DNA of 32,000 bases from Candidatus Saccharimonadota bacterium (lineage in GTDB: Bacteria; Patescibacteriota; Saccharimonadia; Saccharimonadales; UBA4665), in contig CP065016.1 in assembly GCA_016700375.1 (NCBI GenBank), positions 150,001 through 182,000 on the forward strand. The letters run 5' to 3'. Positions 4,421 through 29,226 of the stretch are shown in pieces (position 1 is the stretch's first letter; the number at the start of each line of letters is the position of its first letter). The notes beneath the pieces are model-generated. The model was not told the DNA's origin and did no database searches. It was given only the letters and a program-made list of their open reading frames with translations. The position numbers were made by a program, and so were the translations under genes.

Positions 4421-4822
4421 ATGAGTACAACTACTACTGATCCTATCTCCGACATGCTAACTCGAATTCGCAACGCGATTGCAGTTGGAAAGACCGAAGT
4501 TAGCTTGCCACATAGCAAAATCAAAGAAAATGTCGCCATTAGCCTGCGCAATAACGGCTTCTTACATGATGTTAGCACCGAGGACCTCACCGTTGGTAAG
4601 CGTTTGCACATTACCATCAACCTAGAAGGTGAAAACGCTAAAATTACTGAGATTAAGCGTCTTAGCAAGCCGGGTCGTCGTTCTTACACGAACGCCCGCG
4701 AAGTGCCTCAGGTAAAACGCGGTCGCGGCGTGCTCATCATTTCGACTTCAAAAGGTCTTATGACCGGCGAAGAGGCCAAGCAACAAGGAGTTGGCGGAGA
4801 ACTAATCTGCCAGGTTTATTAG
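4421..4822 (+). CDS. rpsH: 30S ribosomal protein S8
   Basis: DPISDMLTRIRNA motif, at the expected operon position. Confidence 0.96.
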   Translation: MSTTTTDPISDMLTRIRNAIAVGKTEVSLPHSKIKENVAISLRNNGFLHDVSTEDLTVGKRLHITINLEGENAKITEIKRLSKPGRRSYTNAREVPQVKRGRGVLIISTSKGLMTGEEAKQQGVGGELICQVY

Positions 4823-4839
4823 TCTAAGAAAGGAAAGAA

Positions 4840-5379
4840 ATGAGTCGAGTAGGAAAACTACCCATCCAAGTTCCAAGCGGTGTGACAATCACTGTCGACT
4901 CAGACGCTGTGAAGGTGTCTGGGGCCAAAGGGAATCTTGAAACACCTCAGTTAGAGGGAATTACTGTTAGTGTTGAGGACGGCGTCCTCACTGTATCCCG
5001 TGCAAATGATATGCCGAAGATTCGCGCTGCTCATGGCCTTATGCGCGCACTCATAAACAATATGGTGCAAGGTGTTAGCCAGGGCTTTAGCAAAAAGTTA
5101 GAGTTAAACGGTGTTGGCTACCGTGTTGCCATGCAAGGCACCGACCTCAAACTCAATATTGGTTTTAGCCACGATGTTATATACAAAGTGCCGAGCGGCG
5201 TGCAAGTAGCCGTCGAACAAAACACCATGACGGTGAGCGGCATAAACAAACAGCAAGTTGGCCAGGTAGCCGCTGAAATCCGCGCTCTTAAGAAGCCAGA
5301 GCCGTACAAGGGCAAAGGTATAAAGTACGAAGGCGAACGTATTTTGCGCAAGTCGGGTAAGTCAGGAAAGGACAAGTAA
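4840..5379 (+). CDS. rplF: 50S ribosomal protein L6
   Basis: MSRVGKLPIQVPSGV.. is a canonical L6 start. The gap after rpsH is short (17 nt) and has an AAGGAAAG SD. Confidence 0.96.
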   Translation: MSRVGKLPIQVPSGVTITVDSDAVKVSGAKGNLETPQLEGITVSVEDGVLTVSRANDMPKIRAAHGLMRALINNMVQGVSQGFSKKLELNGVGYRVAMQGTDLKLNIGFSHDVIYKVPSGVQVAVEQNTMTVSGINKQQVGQVAAEIRALKKPEPYKGKGIKYEGERILRKSGKSGKDK

Positions 5380-19828: not shown

Positions 19829-19905
19829 GCCACCTTAGCTCAGTTGGCCAGAGCGGCTGTTTTGTAAACAGCGGGTCGTGGGTTCGAATCCCTCAGGTGG
19901 CTCCA
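19829..19905 (+). tRNA. tRNA-Thr (anticodon UGU), CCA encoded
   Basis: Cloverleaf read by hand: acceptor GCCACCT/AGGTGGC, anticodon stem GCTGT/ACAGC, loop TTTGTAA. The T stem has one U-U mismatch. Confidence 0.85.
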
Positions 19906-19954: not shown

Positions 19955-20371
19955 ATGCGACCTAAAGAGAAGGGTGATATTGCAATTGCTAAAGCTATTA
20001 ATTATTTCATGAGTTGTAATTTTGAAGTGTGTTTACCTATAGGTGATAAACGAGATTACGATTTGGTTGTTGAAAAAGAAGGGAAGCTGCAAAGAGTACA
20101 GGTGAAGTATGCTGGACTTTACCCTGGACAAAAAAGTTGTAAGGTGGCTCTTCGTATCACGGGAGGTAATCAATCGTTTCATTATAGTAAAAAGTATAGA
20201 GACGACGCATTCGAACTTCTTTTTGTATACACTGCAAAAGAACAGGAATTTGTCGTAAACTGGTCAGAGATAACTGCTAGGAATGAGTTATCCATTGAAC
20301 ATAAAAAGTATAATAAGTACCTCATAAACTCGAGCAGGGTTAGTGAAGCGGTCAAACACGATAGACTGTAA
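19955..20371 (+). CDS. PD-(D/E)XK nuclease, resembles the intron-homing endonuclease family typified by I-Ssp6803I
   Basis: KGDIAIAKAINYF..CLPIGDKRDYDLVVEKEGKLQRVQVK gives the D..(E/Q)xK core. About 33% GC by hand count of the first 118 nt. The last 12 codons overlap the 5' half of tRNA-Tyr, and the stop TAA is in its anticodon loop. Confidence 0.55.
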   Translation: MRPKEKGDIAIAKAINYFMSCNFEVCLPIGDKRDYDLVVEKEGKLQRVQVKYAGLYPGQKSCKVALRITGGNQSFHYSKKYRDDAFELLFVYTAKEQEFVVNWSEITARNELSIEHKKYNKYLINSSRVSEAVKHDRL

Positions 20372-20419
20372 ATCTATTGGCTTATGCCTTCGTAGGTTCG
20401 AATCCTACACCCTGCACCA
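20334..20419 (+). tRNA. tRNA-Tyr (anticodon GUA), long variable arm, CCA encoded
   Basis: Acceptor GCAGGGT/ACCCTGC, D arm GTG-AAGCGGTCAAA-CAC, anticodon loop CTGTAAA, variable stem GGC-TTAT-GCC, T arm GTAGG-TTCGAAT-CCTAC. Confidence 0.9.
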
Positions 20420-20439: not shown

Positions 20440-20628
20440 ATGGAATGCCCGATGTGTAAAAAACATATGCGTAAGGTACGCTGGGAAATCACAAACAACT
20501 TTAAAGTCGGTAGTGAGTTTGTAGAGTACAATAAAGTCACGTACCACTGCGAGGCTGAGGACATCTGGTTCAGTACAGAGTTGGCTATGCCAAAAAAGTC
20601 TTCGAGCTCATTAAAAAACAAATTATAA
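20440..20628 (+). CDS. small CxxC protein (62 aa), hypothetical
   Basis: MECPMCKKHMRKV...YHCEAED. The track ORF (20377) starts inside the tRNA; ATG 20440 is the first start downstream of the tRNA. AT-rich. Confidence 0.4.
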   Translation: MECPMCKKHMRKVRWEITNNFKVGSEFVEYNKVTYHCEAEDIWFSTELAMPKKSSSSLKNKL

Positions 20629-20639
20629 TAGGTACATAT

Positions 20640-20918
20640 GCCCCGATAGCTCAGTTGGTAGAGCGCATCCATGGTGAACCGCGTATGGTTTTGCCCACTT
20701 TGCAGGAAACTGTGCAAGTGAATCCCGAATAACGGTTAATATCCCTACGGGGACAAGACCGTGGCATTCTTTTTGAGAAGGCCCGAACGACTGACAAGGG
20801 AAGCTAAATTCGACAAAACACGAATATGCTTAAGATACAGTCTAGCCCTCATATATACATAAAAATGAGGTGTAAGCGAAGGATGAGGTCACGGGTTCGA
20901 ATCCCGTTTGGGGCTCCA
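20640..20918 (+). tRNA. tRNA-Thr (anticodon GGU) interrupted by a group I intron; CCA encoded
   Basis: The exons 20640-20675 and 20879-20918 join into a perfect 76-nt cloverleaf: acceptor GCCCCGA/TTGGGGC, anticodon stem CATCC/GGATG, loop AT-GGT-AA, T arm ACGGG-TTCGAAT-CCCGT. Confidence 0.85.
20676..20878 (+). ncRNA. group I intron (ORF-less, ~203 nt) inserted after U36
   Basis: The 5' exon ends in U and the intron ends in G. IGS UUGCC 20691-20695 pairs GCC with exon GGU and UU with 3'-exon AA. P2 20696-20720 has a GAAA loop. P4 is ACGGU/ACCGU, P5 is UCCC-UACG-GGGA, P6 is 20763-20783, P7 is GACUG 20789-93 / CAGUC 20838-42, and P8 is AUUCG/CGAAU. J8/7 AAGAUACAGUC matches the conserved group I S element, and P9 is CCUCAU/AUGAGG. 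Confidence 0.75.
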
Positions 20919-20930
20919 GAATTACAACTC

Positions 20931-20959
20931 TTGACAAAACACAAGCACTTTGATATGGT
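20931..20959 (+). promoter_or_regulatory. consensus-like promoter with no ORF behind it
   Basis: TTGACA (20931-20936), 17-nt spacer, TATGGT (20954-20959). Confidence 0.45.
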
Positions 20960-20965
20960 ACCTGT

Positions 20966-21155
20966 AGTAAGCGCTCCGGCGTTAAAAAACCGAAACACTT
21001 ACAAATTGTTGACCAAAGAGGAATGCGAAAAAAAGCAAACCAAATTGGCCATACCTCCGTAAACTATCGTTAGCCAAACTAGCGAACAAGTTTACCAAAA
21101 CCTCCTCAACACCCTAGGGTAAAAACACCGAGCTGATCACTCGGTGTTTTTGTTT
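20966..21155 (+). ncRNA. candidate ~190-nt small RNA (unknown family)
   Basis: Bounded by the promoter above and the terminator at 21121-21155, with no credible ORF or SD. It contains local hairpins (CGC-UCCG-GCG, CGUUAG-CCAAA-CUAGCG) and two CCUCC motifs (21054-21058, 21101-21105). Confidence 0.3.
21121..21155 (+). terminator. intrinsic terminator
   Basis: AAAAACACCGAG-CTGATCA-CTCGGTGTTTTT followed by GTTT. Confidence 0.7.
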
Positions 21156-29150: not shown

Positions 29151-29226
29151 AGGAGAGTAGCTCAGTTGGTAGAGCATCGGTCTCCAAAACCGAGGGTCGC
29201 AGGTTCGAGTCCTGTCTCTCCTGCCA
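29151..29226 (+). tRNA. tRNA-Trp (anticodon CCA), CCA encoded
   Basis: Acceptor AGGAGAG/CTCTCCT, anticodon stem TCGGT/ACCGA, loop CTCCAAA, T arm GCAGG-TTCGAGT-CCTGT, discriminator G. Confidence 0.92.

Follow-up and report, generated by a model that had tools for sequence, protein, structure and literature searches.

The window, a 32,000-nt stretch of a Candidatus Saccharimonadota genome (contig CP065016.1), contains three tRNA genes that are called by both default ARAGORN and Rfam: tRNA-Thr(UGU) at 19829-19905, tRNA-Tyr at 20334-20419 and tRNA-Trp at 29151-29226. Default ARAGORN and the Rfam tRNA model, run over the whole window, miss a further gene, tRNA-Thr(GGU), which is split into two exons as follows:

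20640..20675, plus strand: 5' exon of tRNA-Thr(GGU), comprising the acceptor 5' strand, the D arm, the anticodon stem 5' strand and nucleotides 32-36
20676..20878, plus strand: ORF-less group I intron of 203 nt, recognized as an insertion relative to intron-less alleles and by covariation
20879..20918, plus strand: 3' exon of tRNA-Thr(GGU), from A37, comprising the T arm, the acceptor 3' strand, discriminator U and encoded CCA

The last three nucleotides of the 5' exon are G34, G35 and U36. When the exons (20640-20675 and 20879-20918) are joined, ARAGORN reports a canonical 76-nt tRNA-Thr(GGU) with a 7-bp acceptor stem, an encoded CCA and normal D, anticodon and T arms. This joined tRNA, proposed in a first-pass annotation of the sequence, is also identical over 76/76 nt (100% identity) to the uninterrupted tRNA-Thr(GGU) genes of three Saccharimonadales relatives (L001, L002, L015). 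Furthermore, blastn alignments of the tRNA region to intron-less relatives break at exactly 20675|20879, so the intron boundaries are independent of any fold, and the intron-less alleles also establish two features claimed earlier, namely that the 5' exon ends in U and the intron in G20878. Segment 20676-20878 is a precise 203-nt insertion at U36|A37. From the fold alone the junction would be ambiguous, because ARAGORN in intron mode shifts the intron 2 nt upstream and calls tRNA-Arg(GCG). We overruled this call and assign the host gene as Thr(GGU), since the intron-less orthologues are identical and the U-1/omega-G rule applies. Neither ARAGORN nor Rfam detected a second, uninterrupted tRNA-Thr(GGU) within the window.

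As relatives we took loci encoding the closest homologues of DNA polymerase III delta'. Gene order at these loci is conserved (delta'-TPR-tRNA-Thr(UGU)-tRNA-Tyr-tRNA-Thr(GGU)-rpmG), and tRNA-Thr(GGU) was uninterrupted in all six relatives that were scanned for tRNAs. The nearest relatives lack the intron, at 91% delta' identity and with identical tRNA exons, while more distant Saccharibacteria (e.g. L179) carry it. The survey of related genomes suggested in the first-pass annotation therefore yields both intron-plus and intron-minus alleles of tRNA-Thr(GGU), and their occurrence among close relatives implies precise loss or gain. The exons have stayed intact under selection.

Two small ORFs on the plus strand adjoin or overlap the split gene. 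The first (20440-20628, 62 aa) lies between tRNA-Tyr and the split tRNA-Thr, has a CxxC motif near its N-terminus and has no Pfam match; its DNA is kept in L001, L002 and L015 and absent in L007, which has a spacer of just 4 nt between these two tRNA genes. The second (20826-21062, 78 aa) starts in P8 of the intron and runs through the 3' exon, and is almost certainly spurious because relatives are without its first third.

The intron was analysed in an alignment of the window (row 1) with 95 homologues of < 88% identity, made with MAFFT without structure fitting (alignment A1). The tested fold, P1-P9 with 62 pairs, was written from the window sequence, and its elements are as follows:

20673..20695, plus strand: P1, formed by exon GGU (20673-20675) plus intron GAACC with GGUU(U)U-GCC
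20696..20720, plus strand: P2 hairpin of 10 bp with one bulged C and a GAAA tetraloop at 20706-20709
20724..20726, plus strand: P3 5' strand (CCC), partner of 20798-20800
20732..20762, plus strand: P4 (ACGGUU/GACCGU), J4/5, P5 (UCCC-UACG-GGGA) and J5/4, from the minimum free energy (MFE) fold and RNAalifold
20763..20783, plus strand: P6 hairpin, with compensatory changes in 7/7 pairs
20784..20797, plus strand: J6/7 (CGA), P7 5' strand (A, bulged C, GACUG) and J7/3 (ACAA), pairing with 20838-20843
20798..20800, plus strand: P3 3' strand (GGG), from covariation with 20724-20726
20801..20831, plus strand: P8 hairpin, with an internal loop resembling the 11-nt receptor (GCUAAA ... UAUGC)
20832..20843, plus strand: J8/7 (AAGAUA) and P7 3' strand (CAGUCU), the 'S' element, from alignment to the Rfam consensus
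20845..20846, plus strand: P9.0 5' strand (GC), whose partner (20876-20877) lies directly before omega-G
20847..20870, plus strand: P9 hairpin (CCUCAU ... AUGAGG) with an A/U-rich loop and compensatory changes in 6/6 pairs
20876..20878, plus strand: P9.0 3' strand (GC) and omega-G (20878), the final intron nucleotide, from intron-less alleles and covariation

At the 5' splice site, U36 (20675) faces G20693 of the IGS GCC (20693-20695). This U-1/IGS wobble, a hallmark of group I introns, is U-G in 95 of the 96 sequences, and the two G-C pairs alongside it are each invariant (96/96). The P1 extension, proposed earlier as AACC/GGUU, is borne out by covariation of its pairs (AU/GU/GC/UA). In contrast, the P10 pairing proposed between the UU of the IGS and A37 A38 is not conserved, as the IGS-proximal positions vary in a way that keeps the P1 extension while the exon stays constant. 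Compensatory changes occur in 8/10 pairs of P2, whose loop is GNRA in 90/96 sequences. P3 shows double changes from C-G to U-A in all three pairs, with 98.6% of cells paired and variants of CCC/GGG that include UUC/GAA, CUC/GAG and similar. The first-pass annotation had drawn a P3 of 4 bp; three of these pairs (CCC/GGG) stand, but the fourth is unsupported, because A20801 forms the first pair of P8 with U20831, and the outer pairs of P8 covary (AU/GC/UA/CG).

Further into the core, P4 is unvarying in the 96 sequences except for U-G/C-G at its final pair, while P5 shows compensatory changes in four of five counted pairs (the four present in the window and the A-C position beside them), and those in P6 include GG/CC to CC/GG and G-C to A-U. 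Positions 20784-20797 are without variation in the 96 sequences, which is in part required by the search pattern. They include most of a putative guanosine site, made up of A20787, bulged C20788 and the adjoining G20789-C20842 pair, with no variation in the family. The J8/7-P7 segment, AAGAUACAGUC (also given as UUAAGAUACAGUCUAG), contains the 'S' element, which aligns to the Rfam consensus AAGAUAUAGUC with top posterior probability and had been recognized in the first-pass annotation; it is unvarying in the family, but AGATA[C/T]AGTC within it was fixed by the search pattern. Finally, omega-G is positioned by P9.0, another group I hallmark, and both P9.0 pairs covary (pair 1: GC 49, AU 38, GU 6, UA 2; pair 2: CG 49, UA 39, UG 7), with 99% of cells paired. 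Other details of the first-pass fold proved accurate, including the coordinates of the IGS (20691-20695), of P2 with its GAAA loop (20696-20720) and of P6 (20763-20783), and the positions of P4 (ACGGU/ACCGU), the UACG loop of P5 and P7 (GACUG/CAGUC).

The fold as a whole was compared with two kinds of control, shuffled data and the same structure with each partner slid by 1-3 columns; the covariation counts, like the Fisher test below, ignore phylogeny. Standard pairs were formed by 90.0% of cells in the structure, as opposed to a mean of 75.0% in the shuffles and 29-44% in the slid versions. Changes on both sides were seen in 43 of the 62 pairs (shuffled mean 34.5, slid 25-39) and in 1059 cells (shuffled mean 330, slid 147-420), and on each of these three measures all 500 shuffles fell short of the structure. 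Compensatory changes are present in the P1 extension, P2, P3, P5, P6, P8, P9.0 and P9. There is no covariation in P4 and P7 across the 96 sequences, and these two helices provide no covariation evidence because they are invariant and always pairable (the invariance of P7 stemming partly from the search pattern).

Independent folding gave the same picture. RNAalifold, which like MFE folding is unable to represent the P3/P7 pseudoknot, predicts P1, P2, P4-P9 and the anticodon stem, with compensatory changes in 31 of 46 pairs, and the anticodon stem, a pairing of exon with exon, itself covaries. The MFE fold of the window sequence contains the same helices at -65.9 kcal/mol (z = -3.0), and includes the P8 and P9 hairpins that had been proposed and that covariation and RNAalifold also bear out. 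Through covariation, MFE folding and RNAalifold the intron displays the P3-P8 and P4-P6 core with P3/P7 pseudoknot that is characteristic of group I. Intron-less orthologues, more than 100 homologues, covariation and independent folding together uphold the central claim of the first-pass annotation, and support the structural reading of this sequence as a tRNA-Thr(GGU) gene of a CPR bacterium that is interrupted after U36 by a compact group I intron lacking an ORF.

The alignment also points to a tertiary contact between L2 and P8. The L2 loop is GAAA in 66 of the 96 sequences and another G-initial tetraloop in 24 (17 GUAA, 3 GCAA, 2 GGAA, 1 GUGA, 1 GAGA). A GAAA loop is accompanied by a P8 internal loop of the GCUAAR...UAUGC type in 64 of 66 cases, the window having GCUAAA...UAUGC, while 22 of the 24 other G-initial loops are accompanied by a plain P8 helix with tandem C-G pairs (for instance CUCC/GGAG). 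The association of loop type with receptor type is strong (Fisher p = 1.3e-16, on a two-class call of P8 and uncorrected for phylogeny), and the pattern fits the preferences of different GNRA loops, reportedly described by Costa and Michel, for either the 11-nt motif or tandem C-G pairs. In the Azoarcus structure there is, beside L2-P8, a second peripheral clamp between L9 and P5; P5 in the window is without an 11-nt receptor. The Azoarcus seed in the alignment of Williams (2020) has a GAAA L2 and CCUAAG/UAUGG in P8, which is the same L2-P8 layout (CACCUAAGG...CUAUGGUG).

These elements suggest how the precursor might be processed. The tRNA body, including its anticodon stem, would fold while the intron folds into P1-P9, and the two can form side by side because P1 uses only nucleotides 34-36. 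P1 would present the 5' splice site through the wobble between U36 and G20693 of the IGS. P3-P8 and P4-P6 would pack around P7, where the G-C pair by the bulged C is the predicted guanosine site, and the GAAA of L2 would dock on the P8 receptor. The reaction would be the standard two-step transesterification. In the first step an external guanosine would attack after U36; in the second, omega-G (20878), placed by the 2-bp P9.0, would take over the guanosine site. The 3' OH of U36 would then attack after omega-G to give joined exons and a mature tRNA-Thr(GGU). Both catalysis and splicing in the cell are inferred.

Whether the RNA would manage these steps alone bears on one alternative, in which the group I intron is real but its efficient removal needs a protein cofactor or RNA chaperone, as for the mitochondrial introns that depend on CYT-18 or CBP2. 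Such a dependence would suit an intron with a P3 of only 3 bp, no stabilizing domain of the P5abc type, a moderate G+C content (48%, exons plus intron) and L2-P8 as the sole peripheral clamp shown. However, the equally minimal 205-nt pre-tRNA intron of Azoarcus self-splices efficiently at 37 C (PMC13168695). Moreover, no maturase-like gene is linked to the 120 listed intron loci described below, and the endonuclease ORF near the window intron is itself unlinked to the intron. We therefore regard cofactor dependence as unlikely, though it deserves some weight.

The ORF-less group I intron of the window has many relatives. A scan of one genome per species, using a pattern composed of the P7 5' strand, the J8/7-P7 3' segment and a tRNA T-loop, returned at least 120 loci, whose record labels are nearly all CPR/Patescibacteria. 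The labels of the listed loci include Saccharibacteria, many groups of Parcubacteria/Paceibacteria, and Doudna-, Uhr-, Magasanik-, Berkel-, Gracili- and Peribacteria. Among these at least 120 listed loci, 104 were resolved by ARAGORN with introns plus the U-1/omega-G rule, all of them tRNA-Thr(GGU) genes interrupted at U36|A37; their introns are 180-257 nt long, and the junction reads CCATGGT|AAGG in 101 of them. The other 16 listed loci mostly represent the identical setting overlooked by ARAGORN, or are cut at the ends of the locus. An uninterrupted tRNA-Thr(GGU) is absent from the sequence pieces of all 120. Several blocks are invariant throughout the family in alignment A1 (GAAUnACGGU, AGACCGU, CGAACGACUG-CA and AGAUACAGUCU), and the window carries them all. 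Among the matches listed, the intron closest to that of the window is L136 when judged by blastn identity times coverage (~80%), and L179 when judged by identity over the columns of A1 (78.5%, with tRNA exons 98.7% identical).

Small size is common in the family, with 63 of the 104 resolved listed introns shorter than 205 nt. The shortest (L252, 180 nt) and the next three (L248, L150 and L251 being among the short members) keep the family's conserved blocks. If active, these short members would rank with the smallest group I ribozymes found in nature.

Taking the locus and the family together, we consider it very probable that the window holds a split tRNA-Thr(GGU) with a 203-nt ORF-less group I intron that would be removed by splicing and that belongs to a site-specific lineage spread across the CPR. 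Recognition by curated models is nonetheless poor. Rfam Intron_gpI (RF00028) does not match the window intron at its gathering score of 50 (13.5 bits, E = 0.6 in a 441-nt search), though the J8/7-P7 segment and the overall helix order align to the model, and there was no match at E <= 10 in nine other family loci. None of the 12 seeds of RF00028 is bacterial (Williams, 2020, bioRxiv 10.1101/2020.01.27.920355), and the low score reflects the blindness of the model to this lineage rather than the lack of a group I fold. The Rfam search proposed in the first-pass annotation thus came close to the result named there as contrary evidence, no group I model hit (13.5 against 50), while the fold is upheld by covariation.

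A score below threshold, together with nearest relatives that manage without the intron, might instead indicate a decayed and inactive relic, with this copy of tRNA-Thr(GGU) being a pseudogene. Such decay is difficult to reconcile with core segments that are invariant and helices that are maintained by compensatory changes in 96 diverged genomes, with exons identical to the functional genes of relatives, or with the lack of any other tRNA-Thr(GGU) in the window or any listed locus, and we judge it very improbable. The insert might also be a different structured or mobile sequence, such as a MITE or an IS remnant, or an assembly artefact, with no more than a resemblance to a group I fold, and this would account for the failure of any curated RNA model to match at its threshold. 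It is scarcely credible, because over 100 independent assemblies have the insertion at the same phosphodiester bond and because the insert combines U-1/omega-G ends with the P3/P7 pseudoknot, covariation of P9.0 and a group I sequence in J8/7-P7.

How the group I intron of the window relates to known tRNA introns is a separate question. Williams (2020, bioRxiv 10.1101/2020.01.27.920355), with a first-pass threshold of >= 18 Rfam bits, mapped 5292 intron-split bacterial tRNA genes and extended the four classical settings (Leu.3Ug, Arg.5Ug, fMet.2Ug and Ile2.5Ug, all IC3) to 21. One of the 21 is Thr.5Ug, with a seed (Rba53.Thr.5Ug) whose exon ends in GGU and whose IGS is GCC, and several seeds in that study apparently come from CPR genomes, judged by their name codes. 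In addition, Lui et al. (2021, PMC8172020) noted group I introns in some tRNAs of circularized CPR genomes. Given these two studies, the tentative novelty remark of the first-pass annotation is right only in part: such introns had already been noted both for tRNA-Thr(GGU) and for CPR bacteria. The present lineage differs in sequence from the Thr.5Ug seed and is uncharacterized, and we found no paper that describes or tests it.

The window intron resembles Thr.5Ug in its tRNA-Thr host, its 5' exon ending in GGU, its position after the fifth nucleotide of the anticodon loop (U36|A37), its U-1 and omega-G and its IGS GCC. The Rba53.Thr.5Ug seed, however, is longer and has a core of the IC3 type (GGU-GUAGAGACCA ... 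AAGGGAUGGUCC), and the family HMM finds no similarity to it. The sole weak match of this HMM among nine typed seeds is Pgr210.Thr.2Ug (9.2 bits), and against typed IC3 seeds there is no match except Mti5.Thr.3Ug (2.9 bits, above the inclusion threshold). In place of the IC3 core, GGU-GUAGAGACUA ... AAGG[G/C]AUAGUCC, the window has CC-CGAACGACUGACAA-GGG and AAGAUACAGUCUAG, and on this sequence comparison we would not file its intron as IC3.

Comparison with the Azoarcus Ile2.5Ug intron is similarly mixed. On the one hand, both lie after nucleotide 36, both are minimal P1-P9 introns (203 nt here, 205 nt in Azoarcus) and both combine a GAAA L2 with a P8 receptor of the 11-nt type. On the other hand, J6/7-P7 is CGAACGACUG here and GUAGAGACUA in Azoarcus, J8/7 is AAGAUAC as opposed to AAGGCAU, the final P7 pair is G-C rather than A-U, P3 has 3 bp here, and P5 is here a short hairpin without the CCUAAG/UAUGG receptor. 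With the introns of tRNA-Leu(UAA) (cyanobacterial/plastid), fMet.2Ug and Arg.5Ug, the window intron shares group I character, an anticodon-loop position in a bacterial tRNA, removal to give the mature tRNA (predicted for the window) and patchy presence, but these classical introns are IC3, belong to other phyla and occupy a different tRNA or position (after nucleotide 34 in Leu and 33 in fMet). The first-pass annotation had placed the fMet intron after U36 as well, which is incorrect, as the classical fMet intron is fMet.2Ug, after nucleotide 33 (bioRxiv 10.1101/2020.01.27.920355).

The window intron is probably part of an undescribed lineage. The fuller proposition, that it is a member of a previously uncharacterized, minimal, CPR-wide lineage that is fixed at U36|A37, has a core distinct from IC3 and is invisible to Rfam, seems to us evenly balanced between true and false; it is set apart from the published Thr.5Ug by comparison with the seed sequence, and the published counts may include it.

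Genomes with the intron would appear to lack tRNA-Thr(GGU), because the gene escapes both Rfam and tRNA finders run with default settings, and this would distort tRNA complements, completeness checks and inferences about codon reading. The same problem of missed tRNAs was met by Lui and colleagues (2021, PMC8172020). The lineage, if true, would explain uncalled tRNA-Thr(GGU) in the annotations of CPR genomes that carry the intron. With over 100 naturally occurring versions of a group I core of 180-257 nt, the family also provides a clean natural experiment in the matching of tetraloop to receptor, and its members are candidates for very small self-splicing RNAs. It would moreover represent a selfish or neutral intron that many classes of bacteria keep at a single site despite their streamlined genomes, but that is missing in the nearest relatives of the genome studied here.

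A few intron-bearing contigs carry labels from outside the CPR. An intron-bearing tRNA-Thr(GGU) is also found on L212 (NZ_JMIY01000006.1), from a RefSeq archaeal assembly of Ca. Methanoperedens nitroreducens, and the contigs with non-CPR labels (L212, L136, L154, L165, L236 and L225) are assigned to Methanoperedens, Pedobacter, Gammaproteobacteria and Kapaibacterium MAGs; wrong binning or labelling of CPR contigs is the probable cause. A further locus, L195 (CAYJOL010000013.1, labelled Ignavibacteriales), contains at ~4816-4987 a truncated copy that begins at J3/4 and so retains two-thirds of the intron, followed by the 3' exon. The sequence directly upstream of this fragment is unrelated, and its translation resembles the C-terminal end of a tyrosine recombinase, so L195 may represent an integrated element that uses the split tRNA gene as its attachment site.

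The motifs AACGACUR (J6/7-P7) and AGAUAYAGUC (J8/7) are frequent in phage and giant-virus contigs, several of which have multiple matches among those listed; the pattern of this viral scan was R/S only, 19 bases, for which some tens of matches are expected by chance. Among the listed viral-contig matches there was no full-length family member, the matches being other group I introns that share the core only.

Finally, a free-standing ORF of 138 aa (19955-20371, plus strand) lies between tRNA-Thr(UGU) and tRNA-Tyr(GUA) in the window. It is homologous to the PD-(D/E)XK homing endonuclease I-Ssp6803I (PF11645; PDB 2OST, E = 1.2e-6). At its 3' end it runs into the start of tRNA-Tyr, and the close relatives lack it. 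Homologues were found at the following positions:

L256, 3001-3405: endonuclease homologue
L257-L264, 3001-3375: endonuclease homologues
L265-L268, 1501-1875: endonuclease homologues
L269-L270, 1501-1878: endonuclease homologues

We considered collaborative homing, in which the endonuclease ORF would mobilize the Thr intron, and rejected it as a general mechanism, as the sequence pieces of the 120 listed intron loci contain no homologue. It is also opposed by L256, which has the endonuclease ORF together with an intron-less tRNA-Thr(GGU). The constant partner of the ORF is instead tRNA-Tyr: in all four other homologue clusters examined (4/4), an uninterrupted tRNA-Tyr(GUA) either starts 5-13 nt beyond the end of the ORF or is overlapped by it, and this holds irrespective of the upstream gene. 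In CPR genomes the endonuclease ORF thus has the look of a mobile gene with a specific target site, the 5' flank of tRNA-Tyr.
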